Shown one piece after another: positions 16,329 through 41,974 of a stretch of DNA of 64,000 nt. The DNA is from Solirubrobacterales bacterium (GTDB lineage Bacteria; Actinomycetota; Thermoleophilia; Solirubrobacterales; 70-9). The stretch lies in assembly GCA_040879985.1 (NCBI GenBank), contig JBBDJH010000004.1:14115-78114 (forward strand), read 5' to 3'. The notes beneath the pieces are model-generated. The model worked only from the letters and a program-made list of their open reading frames with translations, had not been told where the DNA came from and searched no databases. Position 1 is the first letter of the stretch; every line of letters begins with the position of its first letter. A program made the position numbers and the translations under genes.

Positions 16329-16455
16329 GTGGGTGGCGGGGCGTGTCCGGGCGGACGCGGCGTCCTGTTTTTCGCCCCGCCGACAACCTCGGACGGGTAA
16401 TTGCCCCCAGGCGAAAAACCCAGCGCCCGCCCGGACACCCCCCGCCGCCCACCAC
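16329..16455. repeat. Family-D nested-hairpin element, copy 1 (127 bp)
   Basis: Shares CGCGGCGTCCTGTTTTTCGCC .. AACCTCGG .. GGCGAAAAACCCAGCGCCCG with the copy at 30605-30709. Its outer arms GTGGGTGGCGGGGCGTGTCCGGGCGG / CCGCCCGGACACCCCCCGCCGCCCACCAC are palindromic. It lies between the TauE stop and the Rrf2 start. Confidence 0.85.
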
Positions 16456-16457
16456 GC

Positions 16458-17405
16458 CTACCCGATCTCCTCGAGCGCCAGCTCGTCGGAGCGGTCGTGC
16501 GGCGGCCCCTCGCCCTGCTTCGCTTCGCGCTCGGCCCGCCGCCTGCCCCACCAGCGCGGGAACCAGATCAGCAGCCCGAGGCCGACTCCGGCGACCGCTG
16601 CGGCGATCGGCCAGACCATCGGGTCGCCCTCCTGCACGGTGACGATCCCGGCGGCGACGAGGACGACGCCGAGCGCGGTGCGCAGGAAGCCGGTCGGCGC
16701 CCGGGCGGCGAAATGGGCGCCGACGATCACCCCCGGGATCGAGCCGAGCAGGATATTGCCGGCGAGGACGAAGTCGACGTTGCCGCTGACCCAGTGGGCG
16801 ATCCCCGCCGCCCAGAGCAGGATCGCCGCGTGGAAGACGTCGGTGCCGACGACTTTCTTCGGCGCCAGGCGGAAGACGGCGATCAGCAGGATCGCGATCA
16901 CCGTTCCCGAGCCGGCCGAGGTGATGCCGATGACGAAGCCGGTGACGATGCCGATCGCCACCGCGGCGATCTTGTGGCGGCGCTTGATCTCGAAGTCCTC
17001 GCGCTCCTCGACCAGGTCGCTGAGGATCAGCGCCCGCGCCAGGGTGATCAGGCCGACCATCAGCAGGGCGCCGCCGAGCAGCGCGTAGACGAGCGAGTCA
17101 AGCCGCTCTTCGCCGATCCGGCTCTGCAGGATCGCGATCGCCCAGACGCCGGCGACCGAGGCCGGCACGCTGCCGGCGGCCAACCACATCGAGAGGCCGA
17201 TGTTGACCGTGCCCATGCGCAGGTGGCGCCAGCCGCCGACGGTCTTGGTTACCGCCGCGTAGAAGATGTCGGTGCCGATCGCGGTCACCGGCTTGACCCC
17301 GAAGAGGAGGATCAGCAGCGGCGTCATCAGGGTGCCGCCGCCCATGCCGGTCATACCGACCATCGCGCCGATTCCGAAGCCGAAGATGATGATTGCCGGG
17401 TCCAT
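16458..17405 (-). CDS. TauE/SafE-family (DUF81) anion/sulfite exporter
   Basis: MDPAIIIFGFGIGAMVGMTGMGGGTLMTPLLILLFG and a second internal repeat ITSAGSGTVIAILL are typical of TauE. Confidence 0.85.
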   Translation of the reverse strand: MDPAIIIFGFGIGAMVGMTGMGGGTLMTPLLILLFGVKPVTAIGTDIFYAAVTKTVGGWRHLRMGTVNIGLSMWLAAGSVPASVAGVWAIAILQSRIGEERLDSLVYALLGGALLMVGLITLARALILSDLVEEREDFEIKRRHKIAAVAIGIVTGFVIGITSAGSGTVIAILLIAVFRLAPKKVVGTDVFHAAILLWAAGIAHWVSGNVDFVLAGNILLGSIPGVIVGAHFAARAPTGFLRTALGVVLVAAGIVTVQEGDPMVWPIAAAVAGVGLGLLIWFPRWWGRRRAEREAKQGEGPPHDRSDELALEEIG

Positions 17406-17478
17406 GGTGGGCTGCGCGAACTGGTTATCGACTTTCTTGACCTTCTAAGTCAGAAGCGCGCAGTGCGGCAGGATACCA

Positions 17479-18231
17479 ATGGTGCTCTCGGTCCGCGCCA
17501 TTTCCCATGCCTACGGCGAGCTGGAGGCAATCGAGCGCCTCGACCTCGAGCTTCCCGCGCACGGCGTGCTCGGCCTGGTGGGTCCTTCGGGGTGCGGCAA
17601 GTCGACCCTGCTTGAGCTGATCGCCGGCCTGCGCCAACCGAGCGCCGGCGAGATCGAGGTCGGCGGCGCCGGCGCGCCCGCCGAGCGGCTCGCCCGCTGC
17701 GCCTTCATGCCGCAGCGCGACATGCTGCTGCCCTGGCTCGCCGCGATCGACAACGCGGCGCTGGCCCTGCGCAACCGCGGCGTCCGCCGCGCCGCCGCGC
17801 GCGCCGAGGCGGGCCGGCTGTTCGAGCAGTTCGGCCTCGCCGGCTTCGAGCGCGCCCGGCCGGCCGAGCTCTCCGGCGGGATGCGCCAGCGGGTCGCCTT
17901 CCTGCGCACGCTCGTCGCCGGCAAGCCGGTGCTGGCCCTCGACGAGCCGTTCGCCGCGCTCGACGCGATTACCCGAGCCGAGATGCAGGCCTGGCTCGCC
18001 GCCGCGCTGGCGACCGACCCGCGCACCGTCGTCCTGGTCAGCCACGACGTCGAGGAGGCGCTCTACCTCTCCGACCGCGTCGTCGTCCTCTCGGGGCGCC
18101 CGGCGCGCGTCGTCACCGAGCTGAGCGCGCCGGCGCCGCGCACGCCCGACCGCGACGCCGCGGTCACCGACCCGGCCTTCGTCGCCACCCGCGAGCGCGC
18201 CCTCGCCGCCCTGCACAGGGGCTCGCGATGA
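17479..18231 (+). CDS. ABC transporter ATP-binding protein (nitrate/sulfonate/taurine type)
   Basis: Walker A GPSGCGKST, signature LSGGMRQR, Walker B LALDEPF. Confidence 0.9.
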   Translation: MVLSVRAISHAYGELEAIERLDLELPAHGVLGLVGPSGCGKSTLLELIAGLRQPSAGEIEVGGAGAPAERLARCAFMPQRDMLLPWLAAIDNAALALRNRGVRRAAARAEAGRLFEQFGLAGFERARPAELSGGMRQRVAFLRTLVAGKPVLALDEPFAALDAITRAEMQAWLAAALATDPRTVVLVSHDVEEALYLSDRVVVLSGRPARVVTELSAPAPRTPDRDAAVTDPAFVATRERALAALHRGSR

Positions 18232-18980: not shown

Positions 18981-19012
18981 AAGTCAACCCCGCAACACGA
19001 CCGAAGGAAGAG

Positions 19013-22327: not shown

Positions 22328-22357
22328 GCGGGCCTATCGGCAGCGGGCGGGGTTCCT

Positions 22358-23314
22358 TTATCTGTACAAGCCGATCGTCCAGATGCCCGCCAGGCCGCGG
22401 AAGGGCTCGTAGGGCGCGTAGAACTCCTCGACCTCCTCGACGGTGGCGCGGCGGCCGAGCCGGGCCAGGCGGCCGACCAGCTTGAGGAAGACCAGGTCGC
22501 CGGCCGGCAGCGAGTCGGGGTCGCCGCGCCCGAACAGGCCGAGGCACTGCACGGTCCAGGGGCCGATTTCGGGGATCGCCAGCAGCCGCCGGTCGGCGCC
22601 GGGCTCGCCGGGCGAGACCCGGCCGGCGGCGATCTCGCGGGCGACGGCGCGCAGGGCGACCGAGCGGCCGGGCGAGAGCTCCATCGCGGCCAGTTCGGCC
22701 GGCGCCCGGCCGGCGATCGTCGCCGCGGCCGGGACATCGCGCAGGGGGTGGTCGAGGTTTGAACCGCTATGCGACTCAAACCTCGACCACCCCCCGTTGC
22801 GATCGGGCTCGAGCCGCGCGCCCCAGCGGCCGACGATGCGGCGCTGGATGCGGGCGGCGCGCTCGCTCTCGATCAGCTGTTTGACGACGGCCCAGGCGAG
22901 CGCCTCCCAGGCCCAGGGCCGGCGCGCCGGCCGCAGCCAGGGCCGGCGACGCAGCAACGGGCCGAGCAGCGGGTCGCGGCTGAAGCGGCGGTAGAACTGC
23001 GTCAGGTCGTCATCGACCCCGAGCGCGAAGCGCATCCGCTCGATCGCCAGCCGCAGCTCGGCCTGGCCGGCGGGACGGCTGGCCGGCGAGGGGATCGAGT
23101 GCGGCGCGGCGACCGCCTCCGGGTCGAGCGGCTCGGCGCGCAGCGCGACCCGCCCGCCGCCCGGTTCCCAGGCCCGCACCAGGACGGGGCTCTCCCCCAC
23201 CCGCAGCAGCCGCGCGACAACCCCGCCGCCGGCCCGCATCACCCGGTCTTCGCTGCTGTAGCGGGGCAGCCGAAAGGGCGAAGCCGGCTTCGCCTCGACC
23301 GCGAGGCTCGTCAC
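22358..23314 (-). CDS. DNA-3-methyladenine glycosylase II-like (AlkA/HhH-GPD) carrying an in-frame repeat insertion
   Basis: HhH-GPD core PWEALAWAVVKQLI..AARIQRRIV.. then IPEIGPWTVQCLGLFGRGDPDSLPAGDLVF (HhH plus catalytic Asp). GTG start overlaps the upstream stop (GTGA). Confidence 0.75.
   Translation of the reverse strand: MTSLAVEAKPASPFRLPRYSSEDRVMRAGGGVVARLLRVGESPVLVRAWEPGGGRVALRAEPLDPEAVAAPHSIPSPASRPAGQAELRLAIERMRFALGVDDDLTQFYRRFSRDPLLGPLLRRRPWLRPARRPWAWEALAWAVVKQLIESERAARIQRRIVGRWGARLEPDRNGGWSRFESHSGSNLDHPLRDVPAAATIAGRAPAELAAMELSPGRSVALRAVAREIAAGRVSPGEPGADRRLLAIPEIGPWTVQCLGLFGRGDPDSLPAGDLVFLKLVGRLARLGRRATVEEVEEFYAPYEPFRGLAGIWTIGLYR
22744..22795. repeat. Family-A palindromic element, copy 2, inside the alkA-like CDS
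   Basis: GGGGGTGGTCGAGGTTTGAACCGCTATGCGACTCAAACCTCGACCACCCCC. It is translated in frame as GGWSRFESHSGSNLDHP. Confidence 0.85.
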
Positions 23315-23577: not shown

Positions 23578-23645
23578 CGACCGACTGTAGCGGCAAGGCC
23601 AGCGCGACCCGCCATGAAAGCCGGAAACTGCGAGCAAGACAGGGT

Positions 23646-23748
23646 GATCCCGGTAGGGGTGGAACGTCTTGTACTTTTTCCGCGAAGACGACCTCGGACA
23701 GCCGCAATTTGTCTTCGGAAAAAGTTAAGTGGAACCCCTACCGGGATC
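23646..23748. repeat. Family-B nested-hairpin element, copy 1 (103 bp)
   Basis: GATCCCGGTAGGGGT GGAACGTCTTGTACTTTTTCCG .. GACCTCGGACAGCCGCAATTT .. CGGAAAAAGTTAAGTGGA ACCCCTACCGGGATC. About 95% identical to the copy at 27971-28079. Confidence 0.9.
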
Positions 23749-24888
23749 GCCCCCACCAAGTGCCTTTTCATAGATCCGGTACCGCTTGACGACGGTCCCC
23801 CCCATCCCCTCCATCGCCCGGTTCATCGCCTCGTTGGTCTCGAGGATCCAGCCGGTCTCGCCACCGGGCACGCCCTCGGGGCTGGCCGCCTCGAGGTGCT
23901 TGAGGTAGAGGCCGGCGGCGACGCCGCTGTGGCGGTAGGCGTCCTTGACCCCGAGCGCGAAGACCCGCACACGATCGATCCGGCGTTTGGCGAGCAGGAA
24001 CCTGGCCCAGCCGAAGGGCAGCAGGCGCCCGTTCGTCTTCGCCAGCGCCTGGTTGATATCGGGCAGGGTGAAGGCGACGCCGACCGTCTCGCCGTCCTTT
24101 TCGGCGATGAACCCCCAGTCCTCGTCGAGCACCTGCCTGAGCAGCTTGGCGTGGAACTCGATCTCGGCGTCGGTGGCGGGGACGAAGCCCCAGTTCTTCG
24201 ACCAGGCCTCGTTGTAAACCTCGCTGAAGCGACGCATCTCCGCCGGCAGGTCGCGCTTGCGGAAGTTGCGGATCGTCACACCTTCGTCGCTCAGCGCCTT
24301 GGTCGCCGCGGCGTGGATCTCGGGCGCGAACTGGTCGCCTTCCTTGAGCTCGCCGAGCTCGAGGTACCACATCAGCAGGTCCATCGCCTTGCCGTAGCCG
24401 AGCCGCTCGAGCAGCTCCCTGTAGAAGGGCGGGTGCCAGTTCTGCAGGATCATCGGCCGCAGCTCATGGCCCTCGATCAGGATCCCGACCTCGTCGTTGG
24501 TGGTGAAGTCCATCGGGCCGAGCAGGCGGCCGCGGCCGCGCTCGGCCAGCCAGGCCTCGGCGGCGCCGAGCAGGGCCGCCGCCACCGCCGGGTCGTCGAC
24601 CGTCTCGAAGAAGCCGAACATGCCGTCGCTGCCGCCCTGGGTGCGGTCCCATTCGCGGTCGATCTGGGCGCTGACCCGGCCGACCGGCTGGCCGTCGCGT
24701 TCGGCGACGAAGAGCTCGGCCTCGGCGTGCTCGAAGTAGGGGTTCTTGCCGCGGTCGAGGAACTGCATGCGGTCGAAGATCAGCGGCGGCACCCACTGCG
24801 GGTGGTCGCGGTGCAGGTGGAACGGCACCTTGACGAAGCGCTTCAGCTCACGCCGGGAGCGGACGGGGCGGATTTCGACGCTGGACAC
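23725..24888 (-). CDS. GNAT-like N-acyltransferase family protein (~390-aa type)
   Basis: MSSVEIRPVRSRRELKRFVKVPFHLHRDHPQWVPPL.. and an acetyltransferase-like C-terminal half (..VFALGVKDAYRHSGVAAGLY). The last ~8 codons and the stop lie inside repeat B1. Confidence 0.7.
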   Translation of the reverse strand: MSSVEIRPVRSRRELKRFVKVPFHLHRDHPQWVPPLIFDRMQFLDRGKNPYFEHAEAELFVAERDGQPVGRVSAQIDREWDRTQGGSDGMFGFFETVDDPAVAAALLGAAEAWLAERGRGRLLGPMDFTTNDEVGILIEGHELRPMILQNWHPPFYRELLERLGYGKAMDLLMWYLELGELKEGDQFAPEIHAAATKALSDEGVTIRNFRKRDLPAEMRRFSEVYNEAWSKNWGFVPATDAEIEFHAKLLRQVLDEDWGFIAEKDGETVGVAFTLPDINQALAKTNGRLLPFGWARFLLAKRRIDRVRVFALGVKDAYRHSGVAAGLYLKHLEAASPEGVPGGETGWILETNEAMNRAMEGMGGTVVKRYRIYEKALGGGDPGRGST

Positions 24889-24914
24889 GGCAGCCGGGAA
24901 CCTACACTCCCGGG

Positions 24915-26803: not shown

Positions 26804-26845
26804 GCGTCGCCGCCACGCTTGGCTGCGGGCGGGACTATCCCGGCA

Positions 26846-26959
26846 AGAGCCGATTCCGCTAGGCCTCCACTTAACTTTTTCCGAAGACAGTTAGCGGCCG
26901 TCCGAGAACGGCTGTTCGGAAAAAGTACAAGACGTTCCGACCTAGCGGAATCGGCTCTT
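26846..26959. repeat. Family-B nested-hairpin element, copy 3 (inverted orientation, different outer stem)
   Basis: Perfect 19-bp outer arms AAGAGCCGATTCCGCTAGG / CCTAGCGGAATCGGCTCTT enclose CCACTTAACTTTTTCCGAAGACA..GGCCGTCCGAGAACGG..CGGAAAAAGTACAAGACGTTCC. Confidence 0.85.
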
Positions 26960-27012
26960 AACGCAGCGATTGCGATTCTCGCCACTCCCGTGATCTAAAC
27001 TCGTAGCTGGGT

Positions 27013-27507
27013 ATGCCCGATCTGCTCGAAAGAGGGATGCGCAGCGAGCTTCGCCTCGATGGGGACGAGAAGCTGGCGCGAGTCGAGTTGCGGCGACAGA
27101 TCGGGCGGCTGGAAGCTGAGTTGGGCTCGCTTGTCTCCGATGCTTTTTCGCGTTTGCGATTGGACACCGGCGTCGCCGCCATCTCCGGCAGCCCCAGGGT
27201 GCTGGGGCTAGGCGAGCTGGAGGAAGTTCGGGATTCGCTGGCGACGCGGATCGGCGAGGCGCGCACCGCGCTGCGGGAGCAGGACGAGTTGGAGACCCGC
27301 AATCGTCAGCTGCTCGAGCGCATGATCGAGTCGCCCGCCGATTTCAAGTGGCTGCAGATCTCGCGCGACGACATCGGCGCGCCCGGCTGCGGCCACTGGC
27401 ACTCCCGACCCCGCCTCGGCTTGATCGGCATGCTGATGGGCTGGTGGCGGGTCAGGGTCTCCTCCGGATGCCCGTTATCCGGGCGGCTTGCGGCCGTTGA
27501 GCGATAG
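27013..27507 (+). CDS. Hypothetical protein (coiled-coil N-terminus, Cys/Trp-rich C-terminus)
   Basis: 164 aa of non-shadow composition (..RRQIGRLEAELGSL.. ; ..GAPGCGHWHSRPRLGLIGMLMGWWRVRVSSGCP). No family recognised. Confidence 0.45.
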   Translation: MPDLLERGMRSELRLDGDEKLARVELRRQIGRLEAELGSLVSDAFSRLRLDTGVAAISGSPRVLGLGELEEVRDSLATRIGEARTALREQDELETRNRQLLERMIESPADFKWLQISRDDIGAPGCGHWHSRPRLGLIGMLMGWWRVRVSSGCPLSGRLAAVER

Positions 27508-27907
27508 CGCCAAAAGGGCCCCCCGCGCCGACGAACGCCCGCCCGCTCCCTGGGGATCGTTCCCGCTGGCCGAGCTGACCGTGCTCGCCGGAATCGTCAT
27601 GCTCGCGATCGGGATCTTCAGCACGAGCCCGACCGCAATCGGCGTCGGCGTCGTGCTCGCCGGCCTCGGCGGCCTCGAGGTCTCCGCCCGTGAGCACTTC
27701 GCCGGCTACCGCTCGCACACCACCCTGCTCGCCGGCGTAGTCTTCGTCCTCGTCACCGGCGGCCTCTTCTACCTCGCCGGCTTGATCCTCGCGATCTGCC
27801 TCGCGGTCGGCGCCGTAGCCTTTGCAGCTACTTTCTACGCTCTGCGCCGCGCCTTCCAGAAGGCCTCGGGCGGACTCTCGTTCAGGGCCGGCGGCCTGAG
27901 GGGGTAG
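27488..27907 (+). CDS. Hypothetical 4-TM membrane protein
   Basis: Four hydrophobic helices (LAELTVLAGIVMLAIGIF.., AIGVGVVLAGLGGL, LLAGVVFVLVTGGLFYLAGLILAICLAVGAVAFAA). Confidence 0.5.
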   Translation: MRPLSDSAKRAPRADERPPAPWGSFPLAELTVLAGIVMLAIGIFSTSPTAIGVGVVLAGLGGLEVSAREHFAGYRSHTTLLAGVVFVLVTGGLFYLAGLILAICLAVGAVAFAATFYALRRAFQKASGGLSFRAGGLRG

Positions 27908-27916
27908 ATGGCTGAC

Positions 27917-27963
27917 ACGTGGTCGAGGTTTGAACCGCTATGCGACTCAAACCTCGACCACGT
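27917..27963. repeat. Family-A palindromic element, copy 3
   Basis: ACGTGGTCGAGGTTTGAACCGCTATGCGACTCAAACCTCGACCACGT. The 43-nt core is identical to copy 2. It begins 10 nt after the stop of the 27488-27907 ORF. Confidence 0.9.
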
Positions 27964-27970
27964 CGGACGA

Positions 27971-28079
27971 GGACATCCCGGTAGGGGTGGAACGTCTTGT
28001 ACTTTTTCCGCGACGGCGACCTCGGACGGCCGCAATTTGTCTTCGGAAAAAGTTAAGTGGAACCCCTGCCGGGATGTCC
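27971..28079. repeat. Family-B nested-hairpin element, copy 2 (109 bp), abutting A copy 3
   Basis: GGACATCCCGGTAGGGGTGGAACGTCTTGTACTTTTTCCG..GACCTCGGACGGCCGCAATTT..CGGAAAAAGTTAAGTGGAACCCCTGCCGGGATGTCC. It ends 5 nt before the stop of the 28084-28752 gene. Confidence 0.9.
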
Positions 28080-28083
28080 TCTC

Positions 28084-29401: not shown

Positions 29402-32004
29402 TCCGCCGGCCGCTTCCTGCGCAGGCCGAGGCCCTCGCCGCGGCCGAGGCGCTCGGCCAGGACCAGGGTGGCGGGCAGCGCCACCATCACACCGAGCAGC
29501 GCCACGGCGAGGTCGATCACGGTGACGAAACCGAAGTCGCGCAGCATCCGCACGTCGCTGGCGATCAGCACCGCAAAGCCGGCGATCGCGGTCACCCCGG
29601 AGGCGAGCACGGCCGCGCCGGTGCGCGCATAGGCCTGCCTCAACGCCGCACCGAGCTCCCGCCCGGCATGCCGCTCCTGGCGGAAGCGGGCGGCGAGGAT
29701 GACGCTGAACTCGGTCGCGATCGCGATCGTCAACGCCCCCAGCGCCGCCGACATCGGGTTGAGCGGGATGCGGGTCAGGAACAGCACCAGCGCCGCCCAG
29801 CCGGTCGCCATCACGATCGGAACCAGCGGCACCAGCGCCCGCGACCAGGAGCGGTAGACCGCCAGCAGGACCAGCGCCACCGCCAGCAACCCGGCCAGGG
29901 TCAGCAGGTAGCGGCTGTCGGACAGGTCCGAAGCCGCCGCAGCCGCGATCACCGGCAACCCGGCGAGCTCAACCTCCACCCCAGGCGGCGGGCCGCCCCG
30001 GGTCCCGGGCTCCCCCACCGCAGCCCGGATCCGCTCGATCAGGTCCTGCTGGTCCTCGAGCGACTGCGCCCTGATCCCGAACCCCAGCAAGGCCGTTCCG
30101 GCCGGCAGCTTGGTCTGCGGATCGACGGTCGCCAGCTGGCGCAGGTTGTAGGCGGGGATCTGGCGGAACGCCGCGCGGATGCCGCGCCCGGTCAGCGGGC
30201 CGCTGCTGAGCGGACCCGTCAAGCCGCCGCCGGTGACGAAATCCGACAGCGCCGGCCCGGGGCAGACTTCAGCTTCCTCACAACTCGGATTCGCCCCCTC
30301 AAACCCGCCGGCTTTCAGCGCCCGCCGCTTGAACCCGGCCATCCAGCGGATCGTCGCCGGGTCGGTCAGATCTGGAGCCTCCACCCGGACAGCAAGCTGC
30401 CCCGACACACCCGTCGCATCCTGCAGCTGATTCAGTTCCTTGACCGCATCGATGCTCTGCGGGGCCAACTTGCGAATATCGGTCTGCGTCTCGATCTGGG
30501 TACCGACTCCCCAGCCGATCACCGCCAGGGCCAACCCGACCGCCAGAACCCCCTGCGGCCGCGCCTGGGCCAAGCCCAGAACCCACTGCAACCAGGGCGG
30601 GAGTGACGGGTGCCCCGCAGCGGCGCGGCGTCCTGTTTTTCGCCGCGCAACCTCGGCGAGAGACCCAAACCTCCCGGCGAAAAACCCAGCGCCCGGAGGG
30701 GCACCCGTCGGTCCCGCCCGGCCCGAGCGCAGGCTGAGAGCCGCAAAGCCCGCGACGAAGGCCAGCGCGAAGGCGATCGCTATGCCGACGACCAGGAGTA
30801 GGCCGAAGCTGCGGACCATCGGCGTCGGTGAGAGCTGCAGGGCTACGAAGCCGGCGCCGGTGGCGAGGCAGGCGGTGGCGATTGCTGGGCCGCCGCCAGA
30901 CGCTGCAAGCCGGGCAGCCTCAGCTCCCGGGGATGCGCCGAGATTCACGGCCTCGTCGTAGCGCGCTTGCAGCTGGATCGCGTAGTCCACCGCCAGGCCG
31001 ATCAGGATCGGCAGGACGGCGATCGAGGCCATCGTCAGCGAGCCGCCGAGCAGCCCGAAGAGGCCGAAGGTCAGCGCCGCCGAGCAGAGCGCCAGCGCCA
31101 GCGGCAGCAGGCGCCAGCGCGAGCGGAAGACGAGCAGCAGGGCAGCTGCCATGACGACGAGGGCTACCCCGAGCAGGACGAGCAGGGCGTCCTTGAGCGC
31201 ATCGGTGACCGCCTCGACGACGACCGGGACGCCGGAGATCACGTAGCTGCCGCCGTGCAGCTCGAAGCAGCGCTCCGGCTCGCCTTTGAACTTGCAGGCT
31301 TTGCGGGCGACCGGGTCGCGCACGACCGTCTCGATCGTCGCCAGGGCGCGGCGACGCTCGGCCTCGCTGAGGCCGGGACGCAGGCGGAGGATGATCTGGG
31401 CCGAGTTGGAGTTCGGGAAGAGGTAGGCGAGGCGGGCCTTGGGGGTCCCGCGTGCGCGCTCGATGTCGAAGACGAGGGCGGCGAGGAAGTCCGGGTTGGA
31501 GAGGCTCGGCGCGCTGGTGATCCCGTACTGCGCGGCGATCTGGAGCAGCAGCTCGCGCAGTTTGTCGGGCGGGACGCTGGCGGCGAGCCGGCGCAGCTGG
31601 CGGTCGATCTGGATCACCGCCTCGTTGAGGAAGGTGGCCGGGCCGATCAGCGAGCGCACCGGGTCCTGTTCGGCCAGTTCGGTGCAGGGCCCCGGCAGCG
31701 CCCTCCCCCCCTCCGGCACCTTGCCCGAGAGGCACCCCTCGAGCCGCAGGAAGCGGCCCAGGTTTGCGGTCAGGATCAGCCGCTGCAGGTCGCCCCGGGC
31801 GAGGATGACGACGGGTTCTTCGCCGAATTCGCGCTTGACCTCTTCGGTCGCCCGGTAGCCGGGCGTATCGGAATCGACCAGCGTCTCGGTCGCGGCATCG
31901 GTCGGCAGCTGCGTGGCAACCGCCGCCGCCGCCACGGAGACGAGGGCCACGAGCGCGAGCAGCGCCCGCGCATGGCGCACCGACCATGCGGCTAGCGACG
32001 CCAT
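29398..32004 (-). CDS. MMPL/RND-superfamily membrane transporter
   Basis: 868 aa with two 6-TM bundles, each preceded by a large extracytoplasmic domain. Typical MMPL segments are ..SGVPVVVEAVTDALKDAL.. and ..GLAVDYAIQL.. / ..IAIATEFSVILAARF. Confidence 0.85.
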   Translation of the reverse strand: MASLAAWSVRHARALLALVALVSVAAAAVATQLPTDAATETLVDSDTPGYRATEEVKREFGEEPVVILARGDLQRLILTANLGRFLRLEGCLSGKVPEGGRALPGPCTELAEQDPVRSLIGPATFLNEAVIQIDRQLRRLAASVPPDKLRELLLQIAAQYGITSAPSLSNPDFLAALVFDIERARGTPKARLAYLFPNSNSAQIILRLRPGLSEAERRRALATIETVVRDPVARKACKFKGEPERCFELHGGSYVISGVPVVVEAVTDALKDALLVLLGVALVVMAAALLLVFRSRWRLLPLALALCSAALTFGLFGLLGGSLTMASIAVLPILIGLAVDYAIQLQARYDEAVNLGASPGAEAARLAASGGGPAIATACLATGAGFVALQLSPTPMVRSFGLLLVVGIAIAFALAFVAGFAALSLRSGRAGPTGAPPGAGFFAGRFGSLAEVARRKTGRRAAAGHPSLPPWLQWVLGLAQARPQGVLAVGLALAVIGWGVGTQIETQTDIRKLAPQSIDAVKELNQLQDATGVSGQLAVRVEAPDLTDPATIRWMAGFKRRALKAGGFEGANPSCEEAEVCPGPALSDFVTGGGLTGPLSSGPLTGRGIRAAFRQIPAYNLRQLATVDPQTKLPAGTALLGFGIRAQSLEDQQDLIERIRAAVGEPGTRGGPPPGVEVELAGLPVIAAAAASDLSDSRYLLTLAGLLAVALVLLAVYRSWSRALVPLVPIVMATGWAALVLFLTRIPLNPMSAALGALTIAIATEFSVILAARFRQERHAGRELGAALRQAYARTGAAVLASGVTAIAGFAVLIASDVRMLRDFGFVTVIDLAVALLGVMVALPATLVLAERLGRGEGLGLRRKRPAE
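30605..30709. repeat. Family-D nested-hairpin element, copy 2 (105 bp), in frame inside the MMPL CDS
   Basis: GACGGGTGCCCC..CGCGGCGTCCTGTTTTTCGCC..AACCTCGG..GGCGAAAAACCCAGCGCCCG..GGGGCACCCGTC. Translated as TGAPPGAGFFAGRFGSLAEVARRKTGRRAAAGHP in the inter-bundle cytoplasmic linker. Confidence 0.85.
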
Positions 32005-32041
32005 TCAGACGCTCCCCGGGCGTGAGCCGCCCGCCGGGCCC

Positions 32042-32956: not shown

Positions 32957-32964
32957 AAGGGTAC

Positions 32965-34586: not shown

Positions 34587-34742
34587 GGCGGGACCACATC
34601 GGGCGGTCCCTGCTCCGTGCGATCAGTCTATGGGATGCGCCAGCGGCCTCGGTTAGCCCAGTGTTGAGATCCGGCTAACCCCGCAGCAGCGAGGTTCGGG
34701 CCCCGCGGAGAGGCGGAAACCCCGTGGTATGTTCCGGCGGAT

Positions 34743-35432
34743 TTGGGGGGGAACCGCAGACAGCCCGGGCGTTCCCGCAGCGGCGCCGCCGTGGCGAGCG
34801 TGCTCGCCCTGGCGCTGGCCATCCTGCTGTCCGCCTGCGGCGGGGACGACTCGCCCCCCGCGGCGACCGAAGCGGCGGGCGCCTACCCGGTCGAGGTCGT
34901 CACCGCGGAGCTGCCGGCCCGCCAGCGGCTCGGTGAAACGACGCTGCTGCGCGTCGGCGTGCGCAACAGCGGCGAGGAGACGCTGCCGGCCCTGACGATG
35001 ACCTTCTCGACCGGCGGCGAGCAGGGCGACAACTCGAGGTTGCCGTTCGGCTACCGCAGCCCCGAACCGGGCCTTGCCCAGCCGGACCGGCCGATCTGGG
35101 TGCTGGCCGCGGACTACCCGAAAGTCGACGGCTCGTCGCGGCGGGCCGGCGCCGAAACCGCCAGCTACAAGACCTTCAACTTCGGCCCGCTGAAGGCGGG
35201 GGCGACGACCGAGGCGGTCTGGAAGCTGATCGCGGTCCGCACCGGCAACCACAGGTTGCGCTTCGAGATCGCCGCCGGGCCCAGCGGCAAGGCGAAGGCG
35301 AAGACGGCCGGGGGCGCCACCCCCGGCGGCACCTTCACGGTGCGGATCACCGAGGTTCCGCCGGAAACGGTGGTCAGGGACAACGGCGAAGTGGTGCCGG
35401 CGCCGCGGGACCCGACTGAAGCAAACCGGTAA
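34743..35432 (+). CDS. Putative lipoprotein, unknown function
   Basis: Lipobox LALAILLSACGG followed by a beta-rich mature part. TTG start; the exact start is uncertain. Confidence 0.5.
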   Translation: MGGNRRQPGRSRSGAAVASVLALALAILLSACGGDDSPPAATEAAGAYPVEVVTAELPARQRLGETTLLRVGVRNSGEETLPALTMTFSTGGEQGDNSRLPFGYRSPEPGLAQPDRPIWVLAADYPKVDGSSRRAGAETASYKTFNFGPLKAGATTEAVWKLIAVRTGNHRLRFEIAAGPSGKAKAKTAGGATPGGTFTVRITEVPPETVVRDNGEVVPAPRDPTEANR

Positions 35433-35464
35433 GAGGGTATCCGGGCAGGCCCTCCACTTAACTT

Positions 35465-35628
35465 CGATCTCCGAACAAAATTATCGCGGCCCGGATGAGA
35501 GCGATGACGCTGCGCGATTCGGCCCCTCCCCGACGTTCCGCGTAGCGCCGCTACGCGGAAGTCGTGTCGTGACCGCCTCGCTTGGTCCTCGCCCTCCCCG
35601 GTCTCGCGCTAATTTTGTTCGGAGATCG
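35465..35628. repeat. Large hairpin element (family C, 164 bp) related to family B
   Basis: 19-bp arms CGATCTCCGAACAAAATTA / TAATTTTGTTCGGAGATCG plus 4 further bp, with an internal hairpin TTCCGCGTAGCG-CCGCTACGCGGAA. The left flank CCTCCACTTAACTT matches the B3 left end. Confidence 0.75.
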
Positions 35629-36764: not shown

Positions 36765-36819
36765 ATGCCCTAGCGGCTACCCTTGGCTGACCAGCCAAAT
36801 TCTTGAAGGGAGCGGTCAG

Positions 36820-38397
36820 GTGGAGAGCGGAACGGCACCGAAGGTGGACCAGGCGGCGAACGGCGCCGCCTCCGAGGGCGGCGCCCCGGAGCGGATCGAG
36901 GTCCTCAACCCGGCGACCGGCGCGGCGATCGGCAGCGTCGAGGTCGCCTCGGCGGAGCGCGTCGCGGCGACCGTGGCGCGGGTGCGCGGCAACCAGGCCG
37001 AGTGGGAGGCGCTCGGCAACGAGGGCCGCTACCGCTGGCTCGGCAGGCTGCGCGACTGGCTGCTCGACAACCACGAGCGGGTGCTCGACACGATGCAGGC
37101 GGAGACCGGCAAGGTCCGCGGCGACACCTCGGCCGAGACGATCTACCTCACCGACCTGATCAACTTCTACGGCAGCAAGGCGGAGAAGTTCATCGGCGAC
37201 GAAACGGTCCGCCCGCACTCGCCGCTGGCGGCCACGAAGAAGTTGATGGTCCAGTACCGGCCCTACCCGGTGGTCGGCGTGATCAGCCCCTGGAACTTCC
37301 CGCTGGCGCTGGCGCTGGGCGACGCGATCCCCGCCTTGCAGGCGGGCGCCGCGGTCGTCGTCAAGCCGTCCGAGTTCACGCCGCTCGGCCTGGCCGAGAT
37401 CGTCGACGCCTGGAAGCGCGAGATCGGCGGCCCCGACGTGTTCGACTGCGCGCACGGGACCGGCGAGACCGGCGGCGCCCTGGTCGACAACGTCGACTTC
37501 GTCCAGTTCACCGGCTCCGACCGCACCGGCCGCAAGGTGATGGCGCGAGCCGCCGAGACGTTGACCCCGGTCAGCCTCGAGCTCGGCGGCAAGGACCCGA
37601 TGATCGTGCTCGACGACGCAGACATCGACCGCGCCGCCAACGCCGCCACCTGGGGCGGCATGTTCAACTCGGGCCAGGTCTGCCTCTCGGTCGAGCGGAT
37701 CTACGTCGAGGAGCCTGTCTACGACGAGTTCGTCGCCAAGCTGACCAAGGCGGTCGGGGCGCTGCGCCAGGGCGCCGACGGCAAGGCGCCGGCCAAGGAC
37801 GTCGGCGCGATGACCTCGCCCAACCAGCGGGCGATCGTCGAAGCGCAGGTCGAGGACGCGATCGCGAAAGGCGCGCGGGCGGCGACCGGCGGCAAGGCGG
37901 TCGAGGGCCCGGGCGACTACTTCGAACCGACCGTGCTGGTCGACGTCGACCACTCGATGACGGTGATGCGCGACGAGACCTTCGGCCCGGTGGTCTGCGT
38001 GATGAAGGTGCGCGACTCCGAGCAGGCGCTGCACTTCGCCAACGACACCCGTTACGGCCTCGCCGCCTCGGTCTTCGGCGAGAAGCAGCGGGCCGAGCAG
38101 GTCGGGCGGCGAATCGAGGCGGGCGCAGTCAACGTCAACGACGTGATCGTCAACTACGTGCTGATGGACGTGCCGATGGGCGGCTGGAAGGAGTCGGGGA
38201 TCGGCTTCCGCCACGGCGAGTACGGGATCAAGAAGTACTGCCGGCCCGGCTCGGTGATCGTCGCCCGCTTCGGCGGCAAGCGCGAGCCGACCTGGTACCC
38301 GTACACCAAGACCCGCCACGGCCTAGTCGGCCGCATAGCCCGCGCCGCCAACGCCCGCGACTGGCGCCGGCGGCTCGGCCTGAGGGCGTTGCGGTAG
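36820..38397 (+). CDS. NAD(P)-dependent aldehyde dehydrogenase
   Basis: ALDH catalytic motifs LELGGKDP (Glu) and FNSGQVCLSVERIY (Cys). Confidence 0.9.
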   Translation: MESGTAPKVDQAANGAASEGGAPERIEVLNPATGAAIGSVEVASAERVAATVARVRGNQAEWEALGNEGRYRWLGRLRDWLLDNHERVLDTMQAETGKVRGDTSAETIYLTDLINFYGSKAEKFIGDETVRPHSPLAATKKLMVQYRPYPVVGVISPWNFPLALALGDAIPALQAGAAVVVKPSEFTPLGLAEIVDAWKREIGGPDVFDCAHGTGETGGALVDNVDFVQFTGSDRTGRKVMARAAETLTPVSLELGGKDPMIVLDDADIDRAANAATWGGMFNSGQVCLSVERIYVEEPVYDEFVAKLTKAVGALRQGADGKAPAKDVGAMTSPNQRAIVEAQVEDAIAKGARAATGGKAVEGPGDYFEPTVLVDVDHSMTVMRDETFGPVVCVMKVRDSEQALHFANDTRYGLAASVFGEKQRAEQVGRRIEAGAVNVNDVIVNYVLMDVPMGGWKESGIGFRHGEYGIKKYCRPGSVIVARFGGKREPTWYPYTKTRHGLVGRIARAANARDWRRRLGLRALR

Positions 38398-38400
38398 GCG

Positions 38401-38447
38401 TTCCGCTGTTACTTATGCCTCCTATAGATGCATAACTAACAGCGGAA
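38401..38447. terminator. 18-bp-arm inverted repeat filling the gap between convergent ALDH and metG stops (candidate bidirectional terminator)
   Basis: TTCCGCTGTTACTTATGC-ctcctatagat-GCATAACTAACAGCGGAA (one arm mismatch). It has no flanking U-tract, so the terminator function is inferred from position only. Confidence 0.5.
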
Positions 38448-38449
38448 GC

Positions 38450-39955
38450 TCAGGCCGGCGTCTCGATCTTGGGGAAGAGCGGCGGGACTCGCTCGACCTT
38501 CTGGCCGCCGGGGTGGGAGCCGAGGTCGCTGAGCTCGCGTGAGTCCTCGCCGAGCGCCGTGAGCAGCTGCTCGCTGGTCCGCGGCAGGTAGGGAACCAGC
38601 AGGAGGGTGACCACGCGCAGGCCCTCGCTGAGGTTGTAGAGGACTTCGTCGAGGCGCTCGGGGTCGGCCTCGTCCTTGGCCAGCTCCCAGGGGCGGGTCT
38701 CCTCGACGTAGCGGTTGAGCCTGCGGACCAGGGTCCAGACGACCTCCAGGGCCTGGGTCAGCTCGGCCCGGTCGAGCAGCTCGCTGAAGCGCCCGAGCGC
38801 GCCTTCGAAGTCCTCTTCCAGCACGGCGTCGACCTGGGCGGGCGGGACGACGCCGTCGCGGTAGCGCTCGACCATCGCCAGCACGCGGCTGGCGAGGTTG
38901 CCGAAGTCGTTGGCCAGCTCGGTCTCGTAGCGGGCCTCGAAGCCCGCCGTCGAGATCGAGCCGTCCCCCCCGAAGCTGACCTCGCGGAAGCAGTAGAAGC
39001 GCAGCGCATCGGCGCCGAAGCGCTCGATCGCAACAAAGGGGTCGAGCACGTTGCCGAGCGACTTCGACATCTTCTTCTCGCCCATCATCAAATAGCCGTG
39101 GATCGCCATCCGCTTCGGCGGCTCGAGGTCCGCAGCCCAGAGCAGCGCCGGCCAGATCACCGCGTGGAACTTGAGGATGTCCTTGGCCATCACGTGCAGG
39201 TCGGCCGGCCAGTAGCGCGCGGTCAGGTCCTCGCCCTCGCGGGCGAAGCCGAGCGCGGTGACGTAGTTGAGCAGGGCGTCGAACCAGACGTACATGCGCT
39301 GCTCGGGGTCCCACGGCAGCCGCATCCCCCACTTCAGCTTTGGACGCGAGAGCGAGACGTCCTCGAGCCCCCCTTTGATGAAGGCGACCGCCTCGTTGCG
39401 GCGGAAGTCCGGCACGACGAAGTCAGGCCGTTCCTCGTAGAGGCCTTCGAGCTGGGCCTGGAAGGCGGAGAGGCGGAAGAACCAGTTCTCCTCGCGCAGC
39501 TTCTCCAGCGCGATCTCGTGGATCGGGCAGGTCTGGCCGGGGCCGAGCTCGCGTTCGGTCTTGAAGTCGGCGCAGCGCGGGCAGTACCAGCCTTCCCAGG
39601 TGCCCTTGTCGACCCAGCCGTTGTCGTAGACGCGCTGCATGATCGCGGCGACCCGCTCGGCGTGGCGCGGGTCGGAGGTGCGGATGAAGAAGTCGTTGGT
39701 CGCGTCAATGATCGGCATCAGCGCTTCGAACTTGGCGGCGTTGCGGTCGGCCAGCTCCTGCGGCGTCACACCCTCGCGCTCGGCGGCGTTCTCGATCGGC
39801 TCGCCGTGCTCGTCGGTGCCGGTGAGAAAGAAAACGTCCTCGCCGCGCTGACGCATGTGGCGGGCGAGCACGTCGGCGGCCATCGTCGAGTAGGCGTGCC
39901 CCAGGTGGGGCTCGGCGTTGACGTAGTAGATCGGCGTCGTGACGTAGTAAGCCAT
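38450..39955 (-). CDS. metG: Methionyl-tRNA synthetase
   Basis: Class I motifs: HIGH-type (PHLGHAYS) and KMSKS (KKMSKSLGN). Confidence 0.95.
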   Translation of the reverse strand: MAYYVTTPIYYVNAEPHLGHAYSTMAADVLARHMRQRGEDVFFLTGTDEHGEPIENAAEREGVTPQELADRNAAKFEALMPIIDATNDFFIRTSDPRHAERVAAIMQRVYDNGWVDKGTWEGWYCPRCADFKTERELGPGQTCPIHEIALEKLREENWFFRLSAFQAQLEGLYEERPDFVVPDFRRNEAVAFIKGGLEDVSLSRPKLKWGMRLPWDPEQRMYVWFDALLNYVTALGFAREGEDLTARYWPADLHVMAKDILKFHAVIWPALLWAADLEPPKRMAIHGYLMMGEKKMSKSLGNVLDPFVAIERFGADALRFYCFREVSFGGDGSISTAGFEARYETELANDFGNLASRVLAMVERYRDGVVPPAQVDAVLEEDFEGALGRFSELLDRAELTQALEVVWTLVRRLNRYVEETRPWELAKDEADPERLDEVLYNLSEGLRVVTLLLVPYLPRTSEQLLTALGEDSRELSDLGSHPGGQKVERVPPLFPKIETPA

Positions 39956-39974
39956 CGAGCGCGAGGCTAATCGA

Positions 39975-40802
39975 TCACTTGCGCGGCTCGCGGCCCGTCA
40001 ACGCACGGTAGAGGTCGTTGGCGCGGGTGCCGGTGAGGGCGGCGACGACGCCGGCGGCGGCACGCGGCCGGGCGCCCGACTGGACCAGGTGGCGCAGCGC
40101 GTCGACCGCGAAGCCGACGTCCTTGTCGTGGTCGTCGGCGGAGGCCGGCGCGATGACCAGCACGATCTCCCCCTTGACGTCGCCGCGGAAGCGGCGGGCG
40201 AGCTCGCCGAGGCTGCCGCGCGAGACCTCCTCGTGGACCTTGGTCAGCTCGCGGCAGACGGCGGCCGGACGGTCGGCGGCGATCGCCGCCAGGGCGGCCA
40301 GCGAGTCGCCGATGCGGCGCGGCGACTCGAAGGCGACGACGGTCTCGGTCGAGCGCAGCACGCGCTCCATCTCACCGGCGCGCTTCGGCAGGAAGCCCTC
40401 GAAGCGCCAGCGGTCGGTCGGCAGGCCGGAGGCGACCAGCGCCACCGGGACCACCGAGGGACCGGGCAGGACGGTGACGTCGAGGTTGCGCTCGATGCAG
40501 CGGCGGATCAGGCGGAAGCCGGGGTCGGAGATCGCCGGCATGCCGGCATCGGAGACAAGCGCGACGGTCTGGCCGCGTTCGATCCGCTGCGCCAGCTCGA
40601 TCGCCCGCGGCGCTTCGTTGCCCTCGTGGATCGAGATCAGCTGCGGCGCCGGGCGGATGCCGAGCTTGTCGAGCAGGCCGCCGCTGCGGCGGGTGTCCTC
40701 GCAGGCGATGTAGTCGGCGGCGACGAGGGCGTCGCGGACGCGGATCGTGATGTCGTCGAGGTTGCCGATCGGGGTCGGGCAGACGACCAGCAGGCCCGGC
40801 AT
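39975..40802 (-). CDS. rsmI: 16S rRNA (cytidine1402-2'-O)-methyltransferase
   Basis: Trimmed to MPGLLVVCPTPIGNLDDITIRVRDAL..IACEDTR (tetrapyrrole-methylase-fold RsmI N-terminus). The ATG overlaps the upstream stop. Confidence 0.9.
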   Translation of the reverse strand: MPGLLVVCPTPIGNLDDITIRVRDALVAADYIACEDTRRSGGLLDKLGIRPAPQLISIHEGNEAPRAIELAQRIERGQTVALVSDAGMPAISDPGFRLIRRCIERNLDVTVLPGPSVVPVALVASGLPTDRWRFEGFLPKRAGEMERVLRSTETVVAFESPRRIGDSLAALAAIAADRPAAVCRELTKVHEEVSRGSLGELARRFRGDVKGEIVLVIAPASADDHDKDVGFAVDALRHLVQSGARPRAAAGVVAALTGTRANDLYRALTGREPRK

Positions 40803-41761
40803 CAGCCGGCCTTGCCCAGTTCGGCCCGGGCCATCTCCGCGGCGCCGATCATGCCGGCATCCTCGCCCAGCTCGGCGGCGACGACCGGGGTCCGGTTCAT
40901 CGGCCGCAGCGCCCGCGCTTCCAGCTCGCGCCGGGCCGGGCCGAGCAGCAGCTCGCCGGCGGCGACCACACCGCCGCCGATCACGATCGTCTCCGGCTCG
41001 AAGATGTTGGCGTAGCTGGCCAGGGCGACGCCGAGCCGGCCGCCGACCAGGTCGAAGACCTCGATCGCGGTCCCGTCGCCGTCCTGCGCCGCGACCGTGA
41101 CCGCCTTGCCGTCGACCGTCCCCCCCGCGGCGAGCAGCTCGCCGAGGGCGGAGTCGGGATGGCCTTCCGCCGCCGCCAGGCCTTCGCGGCCGAGCGCGGT
41201 GCCGGAGGCGAGCGCCTCGACGCAGCCGCGGTTGGGGCAGTTGCCCTGACAGCCGGGGCCGTCCATCTGGATCGCCATGTGGCCCAGCTCGGCGCCGGCG
41301 CCGGTCGAGCCGCGGTAGATCTCGCCGCCGAGGATCAGACCGCCGCCGATCCCGGTGCCGATCGTCAGCATCACCGCGTTCGCGGTCCCGCGGGCGGCGC
41401 CGGAGCGGTGCTCGGCGAGCGCGGCGACGTTGGCGTCGTTGTCGACGAAGGTCGGCAGGCCGGTCCGCTCGGCGACCAGGTCGCGGATCGGCAGGTTCTC
41501 GATCGGCAGGTTGACGGCGGCCACCGCGAGGCCCCTGGCGTGGTCGATCGTCGCCGGGATCCCCATCCCGATCGCCTCGACCCCGGGGTGCTCGGCGCGC
41601 GCCTCTTCGACCTCGCGGACAAGCAGCTCGACCAGCGCCTCCTCGCCCTCGCCGGCGGAGCGCTCGCGGCTCTCCCAGACGGTCCTCGAGTCGCCGTCGA
41701 GGACGCCGAGCAGCATCTTCGTCCCACCCAGATCGACGCCGATAGCTTGCGGCCGGCTCAT
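40802..41761 (-). CDS. ROK-family glucokinase
   Basis: Trimmed to MSRPQAIGVDLGGTKM. ROK Zn motif: HMAIQMDGPGCQGNCPNRGCVE. Confidence 0.85.
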   Translation of the reverse strand: MSRPQAIGVDLGGTKMLLGVLDGDSRTVWESRERSAGEGEEALVELLVREVEEARAEHPGVEAIGMGIPATIDHARGLAVAAVNLPIENLPIRDLVAERTGLPTFVDNDANVAALAEHRSGAARGTANAVMLTIGTGIGGGLILGGEIYRGSTGAGAELGHMAIQMDGPGCQGNCPNRGCVEALASGTALGREGLAAAEGHPDSALGELLAAGGTVDGKAVTVAAQDGDGTAIEVFDLVGGRLGVALASYANIFEPETIVIGGGVVAAGELLLGPARRELEARALRPMNRTPVVAAELGEDAGMIGAAEMARAELGKAG

Positions 41762-41812
41762 CTCCACTCGGGGCTGGTTTCGCGGGCGACCGCGGACATC
41801 GGCATGATTCCT

Positions 41813-41974
41813 GGAGTCTCTCTGAAAATCGGCGTGTGCGTCTGACGTGCGCCGGACCGAGCGGGGCAAGGACGCAGGGAGGCCGAATAGCAGAGCTATT
41901 TGGCCGACCGAGGACGCCGCACCGCGAAGTGTCCGCCGCCGTCAGACGTGCGCGAGGATTTTCGGAGAGACTCC
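41813..41974. repeat. Nested-hairpin element (family F, 162 bp) in the glucokinase/LCP divergent intergenic region
   Basis: Outer arms GGAGTCTCTCTGAAAATC / GATTTTCGGAGAGACTCC (1 mismatch), inner arms GCGTCTGACG / CGTCAGACG, and core ..CTATTTGGCCGACCGAGGACGCC.. similar to the B/D apical core. Confidence 0.7.

Follow-up and report, generated by a model that had tools for sequence, protein, structure and literature searches.

Palindromic repeats with locus-specific stem bases in Solirubrobacterales: a probable new superfamily of non-autonomous elements

A 64,000-nt stretch of contig JBBDJH010000004.1 from a Solirubrobacterales bacterium (hereafter "the window"; G+C content about 70%) contains seven inverted repeats, termed here B1, B2, B3, D1, D2, C and E. 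They raise the question whether such repeats are copies of one family and, if so, how a family could spread while the outer stem of each copy is palindromic and yet differs in sequence from copy to copy. Our analysis indicates that B1-B3 together with D1 and D2 probably represent a previously undescribed superfamily of non-autonomous palindromic repeats (~105-125 nt), which appears to be specific to Solirubrobacterales (Thermoleophilia, Actinomycetota), a group of abundant soil Actinomycetota known almost only from metagenome-assembled genomes (MAGs).

A preliminary description of this locus had listed all seven repeats as one family with a conserved apical core as its hallmark. The inverted-repeat search and the motif counts against expectation or shuffles, carried out on the window, confirmed all seven (arm length 19-44 nt, arm complementarity 80-100%; Table 1), but common membership stands for five of them only. 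B1, B2 and B3 have two long invariant blocks in common, GGAACGTCTTGTACTTTTTCCG and CGGAAAAAGTTAAGTGG, and the B 17-mer and 22-mer occur three times each in the window (expected: 0.01 and 0.00). D1 and D2 share GGCGTCCTGTTTTTCGCC and GGCGAAAAACCCAGCGCC (D 18-mers: two occurrences each, expected 0.03 and 0.16). The covariance model trained on 68 B copies reported B1-B3 with 116-129 bits (E 2e-24 to 1e-27), D1 with 36.7 bits (E 2.6e-6) and D2 with 26.9 bits (E 4.5e-4), and these matches argue for one architecture and one ancestry of five of the seven elements; C and E showed no match to the model in the window. The nine-base apical core ACCTCGGAC is weak as a hallmark by itself: it occurs 3 times in the window against 0.95 expected, 5 of 100 shuffles reach the same count, and B2 and D2 contain only variants of it.

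Further B copies were gathered from a collection of species-representative genomes with one exact 20-mer from the B right arm. More than 113 matches were obtained, and among the matches listed every one falls in a MAG of Solirubrobacterales/Thermoleophilia. The DNA of relatives fetched around copies and orthologues comprises 1.04 Mb (its loci are labelled L013, L114 etc.), including six syntenic relatives of the window (L114-L119) obtained via orthologues of the MMPL transporter gene that contains D2. From these loci 128-136 B copies were recovered; the alignment includes 115 copies and the orientation classes 130. Extrapolating from three copies in 64 kb, B probably reaches the order of 100 copies per 2.5-Mb genome. 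D copies of the same layout were found in L026 (two), L046 and L075, and subfamilies bridging B and D in L090 and L083 (GGCTTGTACTTTTTC...GAAAAAGTTGAGC) as well as in L017 and L058 (GAACGGCTTGTACTTCTCGG...CCGAGAAAGTTGAGTGA). Together with the matches of the B model to D, these copies indicate that the B/D superfamily is real. Some B copies have a second type of interior (TTTTTCGTCGAG...GGGCG.CAGCC...CCACCGAAAAAG; Table 1), and orthologous copies may differ in interior type (e.g. L115 and L116 at the site of the GNAT acetyltransferase gene discussed below), which hints at replacement or conversion between copies. A search of Rfam 15 reported no match at the gathering threshold in the whole window, and nothing overlapping any element even at E <= 10 in the region 16200-42100, so that no described RNA family accounts for the elements. 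The literature likewise yielded no description of such repeats for Thermoleophilia or Solirubrobacterales, nor of the repeat content of Solirubrobacterales in general.

The B consensus (~115 nt, derived from the 115 aligned copies) reads AGGGCCTATCCCGGTAGGGGT-GGAACGTCTTGTAC-TTTTTCCG-(~30-nt variable apex)-CTTCGGAAAAA-GTTAAGTGGA-ACCCCTACCGGGATAGGCCCT. Its asymmetric core of ~75 nt is nearly invariant and contains unpaired GGAACGTC (with CGTC within), a helix CTTG(T)AC/GTTAAG with a bulged T and invariant G.T pairs, and a second helix T5CCG/CGGA5; the apex is variable and includes CGGAC(A/G)GCC and a GGACNGCC mini-hairpin. In the apex RNAalifold found no conserved helix, and by eye we noted only partial CCGAG/CTCGG covariation and a GCGG-ACAG-CCGC mini-hairpin. 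The core is enclosed by an outer stem of ~20 bp, the core-proximal part of which is element sequence (CCCGGTAGGGG), while its base is locus-specific. The inner two thirds of the stem (ATCCCGGTAGGGGT) are part of the element; symmetry of the arms extends over about 21-22 bp, and the outermost 7-9 bp vary between copies. Thus, the proposal of an outer stem that is palindromic in each copy and yet copy-specific holds in 68-115 copies, with the qualification that only the stem base is specific to the locus.

Covariation in the outer stem is very strong: all 20 pairs show double changes, 98.4% of the cells are paired, and the number of double-changed cells (257) compares with 60 +/- 6 after shuffling and at most 39 with slid partners. 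In contrast to the outer stem, the inner helix shows no variation and retains two invariant G.U pairs and two single-base bulges. B2 illustrates the divergence of individual stems, as the sequence of its 19-bp outer stem (AAGAGCCGATTCCGCTAGG) is divergent and its pairing perfect. The suggestion of compensatory evolution is therefore borne out in 20 of 20 pairs, and also in a coding region (see D2 below), but it does not imply a structured-RNA gene, because the orientation relative to genes is mixed and the excess of G.U over A.C ignores the direction of transcription. On the element's plus strand, wobble pairs exceed A.C mismatches by ~4:1 whichever direction the neighbouring gene runs, hence some single-stranded plus form seems to matter, and not simply read-through mRNA. 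A small open reading frame (ORF) of 20 codons (TTG...TAA) through the B core was considered and dismissed, since apex indels break it in several copies.

B copies sit at the ends of genes. Flanking genes have their stop codons at a distance of about 0-3 nt from the stem base or overlapping with it, and among the genes that end inside B, 12 terminate at a TAA within CCACTTAA and 9 at a TAG within CCGGTAGGGG. In the window, the GNAT acetyltransferase gene (23725-24888, minus) enters B1 and ends at the TAA in CCACTTAA, while D1 lies directly past the stop codon of a TauE-family gene (16458-17405, minus; Pfam). Copies between divergent genes are scarce (7/118 or 11/118, according to two crude gene calls), and intragenic B is limited to one dubious case among 136 copies; intragenic D is represented by the MMPL copies and one further candidate in L046. 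With respect to the upstream gene, 60 of the 130 copies have the element minus strand in its sense and 20 the plus strand, 22 lie between convergent genes and 28 are in other arrangements. The rule that sense RNA always carries the GUCCGAGG orientation is thereby reduced to a bias of ~3:1, which is not absolute (60 vs 20, with both in 22). The T5 and A5 runs of B lie inside the hairpin and are mutually paired. No U-tract was found 3' of the B hairpins, and the terminator scan revealed no terminator-like site at B1-B3, its only hits coming from small local hairpins followed by T5 within the D arms. An intrinsic terminator was rejected because the B hairpins have no following U-tract. A motif GACAGGACCCGCG occurs a few bases past several D elements (right flanks, L026, L037, L075) and is absent beside D1 and D2 in the window.

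Comparison of orthologous loci reveals both gains and losses. The B1 site is empty in four of the six syntenic relatives (L114, which is ~92% identical to the window, L117, L118 and L119), all of which encode a short related GNAT C-terminus (YEKAIGAPS* in L114). The window, L115 and L116 have the element at this site, oriented identically in all three, and their GNAT ORF continues into it as far as its TAA; filled and empty alleles reveal no direct duplication. The right arm at filled B1 sites (e.g. GGCGGCCCTGT in L116) matches the sequence present at empty sites (GGCGCCCCGT), and the left arm is its inverted copy. At the position of B3 all six relatives have a short sequence only, which in L114 and L116 forms a small stop-proximal hairpin (e.g. 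TAG-AGAGG-ATGC-CCTCT). Similarly, L072 has a small hairpin TAG-AGGGATGCCCT-CTT where L013 and L027 have full elements with AGGGATGCCCT as the right arm. An analogous relationship was found for E, where the empty allele of L115 has AGACTCC, which in the filled allele forms the right terminus of E, and the left terminus is its complement. These sites agree with a mobile element entering pre-existing hairpins, as had been proposed, but only in part, for most of the stem is borne by the element. In 0.9 Mb no empty CCGGTAGGGG...CCCCTACCGG hairpin was found: all such pairs are spaced ~70-79 nt and enclose B cores, which suggests that most of the outer stem moves with the element. The entry of B into an independent family of repetitive extragenic palindromic (REP) sequences was dismissed for want of any CCGGTAGGGG...CCCCTACCGG stem without a B core in this DNA, and solo small hairpins of the AGAGGGATGCCCTCT type, with two occurrences only, do not form a family.

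The C-terminus of the GNAT protein was dropped as a proxy for presence of the element, as ~10 of 120 orthologues end in ...PGRGST and a short tail is compatible with an element located past the stop; the same comparison undermines "YEKAL" as a mark of a single insertion. The GNAT protein of the window has a counterpart of 100% identity in a Solirubrobacterales MAG at NCBI. A short-read contig from the Logan collection with an identical GNAT gene (L122, SRR27977663_291879) ends 7 nt past the stop, inside B1, as would fit a repeat that breaks assemblies.

The two remaining B copies of the window bound a rearrangement. In each of the six syntenic relatives the B3_4 gene is followed by the short sequence, the two small genes, a single B copy and then the next gene, and the segment between B2 and B3 (Table 1) is inverted in the window relative to all six, according to the switch in BLAST orientation, the junction alignments and the gene order. 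An orphan outer arm next to B2 (GGGACTATCCCGGC, without a partner arm) resembles the right arms of the B copy of the relatives at the same locus. Simple recombination between two B copies, recombination between a small hairpin and an arm, and replicative inversion were each considered, and each accounts for only part of the junctions.

D2, the coding copy, shows the same maintenance of pairing within a protein. Its site is the linker that joins the halves of an MMPL/RND transporter (Pfam MMPL on each half), of which it encodes residues of about 432-467 (PTGAPPGAGFFAGRFGSLAEVARRKTGRRAAAGHPS). D2 is present in about 116 of 120 MMPL orthologues in either orientation: 80 of 121 proteins, that of the window included, have the minus orientation (...AGFFA...RKTGRR...), 37 the plus orientation (...GVLFFA...RRKTQR...; 36 clear cases and the variant P0112), and 4 partial deletions of the region. 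Orientation does not track phylogeny, with nearest neighbours of opposite orientation in 44 of 115 cases, among them pairs with 95-96% identity outside the region. The core of L120 is the reverse complement of that of L121, and their arms and apex differ too; in L117 the D2 core is inverted, and L119 has a deletion between short direct repeats. In the DNA of seven genomes compensatory changes in the D2 arms alter two codons at once (e.g. GAP...GHP vs GPP...GDP). Both orientations thus coexist in close relatives with the frame kept, as in intragenic invertons or hairpin-loop inversions. Judging from the compared sequences, D2 is a recurrently flipping, hypervariable intragenic hairpin, with either frequent flips or two old alleles reshuffled by recombination behind the pattern. 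In L121 (2258-2590) ~70 extra in-frame bases precede the D element and comprise arm-like repeat units GGGGGTGCCCC, GACGGGTGCCCC and GACGGGTCCCCC, and several other MMPL orthologues have similar extensions of 12-25 residues.

Table 1. Repeat elements and associated features of the window, and B copies with the second interior type in related loci
Feature	Coordinates	Strand	Arms	Arm complementarity	Remarks
D1, D-type	16329-16452	+	16329-16363 / 16418-16452	86%	GGCGTCCTGTTTTTCGCC ... ACCTCGGACGG ... GGCGAAAAACCCAGCGCC; 35-nt outer arms
B1, full B-type	23641-23754	+	23642-23660 / 23734-23752	95%	covariance model 127.3 bits; inverted repeat
Orphan outer-arm remnant of older B copy	26831-26844	-			GGGACTATCCCGGC; adjoins B2
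B2, B-type	26845-26958	-	26845-26863 / 26941-26959	100%	covariance model 115.6 bits; edge of inverted segment
Inverted segment (1.0 kb)	26959-27968				two small genes (27013-27507, 27488-27907); edges are the inverted copies B2 and B3
B3, full B-type	27969-28082	+	27969-27988 / 28062-28081	95%	covariance model 129.4 bits; adjoins stop of B3_4-domain gene (28084-28752, minus)
D2, D-type	30597-30718	+	30595-30616 / 30698-30719	91%	in frame within MMPL/RND transporter gene (29398-32004, minus)
Half-copy of B	35433-35464	-			outer arm and CCACTTAACTT; truncated by C
C, separate element	35465-35628		35465-35508 / 35585-35628	80%	164 bp; near-perfect terminal inverted repeats of ~24 bp (CGATCTCCGAACAAAATTA...)
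E, separate palindromic insertion	41813-41974		41813-41847 / 41940-41974	83%	162 bp; ROK / LytR_cpsA_psr gap
B copy, second interior type	L115:18036-18149
B copies, second interior type	L117-L119, near 14.9 kb
B copy, second interior type	L118:2582-2696

C and E stand apart from the superfamily. By reading of the sequences, their terminal repeats resemble each other (TCTCCG..AAAAT..TCGCG) and neither B nor D, and the two may form a low-copy family of their own, further copies of which were not found in the 1.04 Mb of related DNA. C is absent at its site from L114, L115 and L116, and E, flanked by divergent ROK (40802-41869, minus) and LytR_cpsA_psr (41836-43212, plus) genes (Pfam), is a clean insertion relative to L115. 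The half-copy of B truncated by C lies directly past the stop of the gene 34743-35432; it was recognised by CCACTTAAC, which has 4 matches in the window (expected: 0.05), and in L114-L116 there is nothing at its site.

Several other features of the window and its relatives deserve mention. A second palindromic repeat, 43 nt long and unrelated to B and D (GTGGTCGAGGTTTGAACCGCTATGCGACTCAAACCTCGACCAC), is present in three copies (6908-6950, 22748-22790 and 27919-27961), the last of which adjoins B3 and has no counterpart in L114, the closest relative. Three intergenic positions, 778-826 (just upstream of a subtilase gene), 38401-38447 and 61207-61257, are occupied by short inverted repeats that are perfect or nearly so and richer in A+T. 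The segment 45112-49723, of lower G+C content (0.62-0.63), may be a defence island; its products are an Mrr_cat-NACHT protein of 1063 aa and a DUF4143/AAA_14 ATPase. An additional 2.5 kb is present in L114 (782-3303) relative to the window at ~38383-38460, after an aldehyde dehydrogenase gene, with a 313-aa gene and an ATPase_2/DUF234 gene.

How could such elements spread? New copies probably arise by copy-and-paste or by conversion, and the targets would be stop-proximal sequences with a prior resemblance to one arm or with a small hairpin of their own. Intrastrand templated repair within the hairpin would then create the complementary opposite arm or maintain its complementarity, and in that case the apparently "compensatory" changes would be single events. 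The element would be transcribed as a very stable hairpin in the 3' untranslated region (3'-UTR; about -65 to -71 kcal/mol), and this hairpin would most likely act as a barrier at the mRNA 3' end or as a processing site, not as a classical terminator. A joint and bolder version, which we regard as quite unlikely in its entirety, dispenses with a dedicated transposase altogether: template-switch or short-homology copying would paste the core beside an arm-like stop-proximal flank, the other arm would be an inverted copy of the flank, and the same hairpin chemistry would flip the core and thereby produce a naturally recurring two-state recoding of the presumably cytoplasmic MMPL linker. If true, each insertion would create its own perfectly paired, locus-specific outer stem, and such transposase-independent, target-templated spread would be a new mechanism of bacterial repeat proliferation.

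A number of observations weigh against spread by copying as the whole explanation. Folding favours the plus strand over its complement (-71.1 vs -64.6 kcal/mol; more stable in 104 of 115 copies) because of the invariant G.U pairs and bulges of the inner helix. No variation is seen in the core arms, while the apex in orthologous copies has reached the divergence of the family background (identity 0.73 vs 0.71 in random pairs); concerted evolution was dropped as an explanation of these values, which fit saturation or turnover alike. At orthologous B loci ~120 pairs have the same orientation and one is flipped (L054 vs L064). Invariance of the core, a fold specific to the plus strand and an orientation kept at each locus together point to some constraint on each copy, and such constraint suggests a host or strand-specific function rather than pure selfishness. 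Outgroup polarity is available for the B1 and B2/B3 sites only, at which the empty allele already had one outer arm, and the empty alleles at the L072 locus and at the E site could be deletions that kept one arm. No direct target-site duplication was found in the flank analysis or in the comparisons of filled and empty sites, and Pfam scans identified no transposase, as a candidate mobilising enzyme, in the window or beside any copy examined; the absence of a transposase gene from the window, as stated in the preliminary description, holds for every larger ORF scanned. Finally, as the B set was gathered with an exact 20-mer, part of the conservation seen in the right arm stems from ascertainment.

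The same constraint is what a cis-acting structured RNA family of the host would predict, e.g. a 3'-UTR stabiliser, an RNase III/E processing site or a factor-dependent terminator, with pairing and core sequence maintained through purifying selection at each locus and with mobility either ancient or irrelevant. We consider this somewhat improbable as a full account, although it is compatible with the copying mechanism outlined above and not exclusive of it. It would explain the very strong covariation of the outer stem, the invariance of the core arms down to the two G.U pairs, the orientation kept at orthologous loci, the tight placement at stop codons and the scarcity of copies between divergent genes, and the B architecture of a lower stem of ~20 bp, an asymmetric internal loop and an upper stem appears similar to that of phage T7-type RNase III sites. 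However, such an RNA should not be found in mixed orientation to the upstream gene (60 minus-sense, 20 plus-sense and 22 both), its wobble bias should not favour the element plus strand regardless of which strand is the mRNA, and it should not be gained and lost between close relatives; moreover, the B hairpins have no U-tract, with terminator-scan hits confined to the D arms, and one copy lies inside an ORF and flips freely there.

The strand specificity could alternatively reflect a single-stranded DNA element moved by an HUH/Y1 transposase of the IS200/IS605 or RAYT (REP-associated) type encoded elsewhere in the genome. Recognition by this enzyme would involve the inner hairpin of the plus strand, including its bulged T, together with the CGTC tag next to it. 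This account we judge unlikely. The strand-specific fold with its invariant G.T pairs and bulges, the plus strand being more stable in 104 of 115 copies, a wobble bias independent of the direction of transcription and the lack of direct target duplication are all in its favour, as are CGTC just 5' of the inner helix and GTAG in the outer stem, both of them tags of known REP superfamilies (PMC3733652). On the other hand, defined CGTC REPs have 8-9-bp stems and 4-5-nt loops, unlike B (PMC3733652). A single B arm is not itself a REP palindrome of 20-40 nt, the subfamilies of L090, L083, L017 and L058 have CGGC in place of CGTC, and no Y1 transposase was found among the window ORFs scanned. Extrahelical bases and strand-specific folds are also known from integron attC sites, which have R'' (RYYYAAC) and R' (GTTRRRY) boxes and form cassette arrays of one orientation next to intI. 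In B the core GTTRRRY is matched by the inner box on the right, GTTAAGT (in other subfamilies GTTGAGY). Also reminiscent of attC are the variable apex enclosed by a succession of box, 5-nt spacer and box, the extrahelical base in a strand-specific fold and the location directly after ORFs. Nonetheless, the left box is CTTGTAC and not RYYYAAC, so that only the R' box fits, D copies have neither box, and no integrase was found nearby among the ORFs scanned with Pfam; above all, the copies are dispersed at core genes in both orientations instead of forming arrays. We rejected this candidate, as the dispersed, two-orientation distribution effectively refutes it and leaves it a negligible probability.

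Whatever the mechanism of their spread, the elements have consequences for their hosts and for those who assemble their genomes: the B family breaks short-read assemblies, bounds an inversion and rewrites protein C-termini (e.g. that of the GNAT gene), and D2 provides two interchangeable recodings of a conserved transporter linker. Hundreds of copies, orthologous series and a coding copy make up a natural data set for pairing that is kept under sequence turnover. No autonomous parent of B was identified; the candidate, the sole split copy (L106), turned out to be a B interrupted by an unrelated transposon of the IS1595 family, which is also the only insertion sequence (IS) found touching a B copy. 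This 4.4-kb insertion (L106:3467-7925) lies in the T5 run of the copy, with TTTTT on either side; besides the IS1595-family transposase it encodes a fusion of an N6/N4 methylase with an Mrr-like nuclease.

Among known repeats, those of the REP superfamilies provide a close comparison. A REP is an imperfect palindrome of 20-40 nt, one end of which bears a GTAG or CGTC tag that is left unpaired, and a REPIN consists of two inverted units. B resembles them as a high-copy extragenic palindrome located mostly between convergent or tandem genes (more than 113 matches, adjacent to stops at gene 3' ends), as a hairpin of ~100 nt with covarying arms and no direct target duplication, in the possession of GTAG and CGTC motifs, and in being likely transcribed as a 3' hairpin. 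By inspection, however, the B arms are not self-complementary, despite the presence of both tags, and the unit is not a dimer of 20-40-nt palindromes; it is best conserved in the asymmetric inner core and not at its ends, and the base of its stem is specific to the locus. The window ORFs that were scanned include no RAYT. The host phylum also differs, since the phyla reported for tagged REPs do not include Actinomycetota; the CGTC tag itself extends to Rickettsia conorii, whose Rickettsia palindromic elements (RPEs) end in CGTC, CGTC-1 and CGTC-4 REPs being RPE-6 and RPE-4, respectively (PMC3733652).

B is similarly close in layout, and without sequence similarity, to the enterobacterial ERIC/IRU repeats. 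These are imperfect palindromes of ~120 nt in transcribed intergenic regions of enterobacteria, with a core conserved across species, present or absent at orthologous loci in both orientations and with no known transposase. B shares with them length, placement, conserved core, presence/absence polymorphism, both orientations and the lack of a known transposase, but ERIC is not known to have copy-specific outer stems and is not typically fused to stop codons. RPEs are known as palindromic repeats inserted in frame in protein-coding genes and kept across species, and in this respect D2, in frame in the MMPL gene and kept across relatives, resembles them; unlike RPEs, B is almost never intragenic (the one dubious case in 136), and the coding copy D2 repeatedly switches orientation. 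Correia/NEMIS and other miniature transposable elements with inverted repeats (MITEs) can be RNase III substrates and can alter the expression of neighbouring genes. They are, like B, short non-autonomous repeats whose inverted ends form RNA hairpins, but B has no fixed terminal inverted repeats, no duplication of TA or other direct duplication, and no parent IS. A DDE-type MITE was rejected because the outermost 7-9 bp differ between copies and no direct duplication is present; the flanks being inverted and not direct repeats, B is not a conventional MITE of this type.

In plastid hairpin-loop "minute inversions" and in intragenic invertons a segment between inverted arms occurs in both orientations. 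The D2 segment likewise occurs recurrently in both orientations among close relatives, and its inversion inside a gene recodes the protein, as in intragenic invertons, although the flipped segment is only ~70-90 nt long and no invertase is encoded nearby. On balance, the superfamily is best read as the same kind of entity as REP/REPIN, ERIC, Correia-type MITEs and the rickettsial RPEs, and the question of how a palindrome maintains its pairing is one that it has in common with REPINs, ERIC and plastid hairpins.

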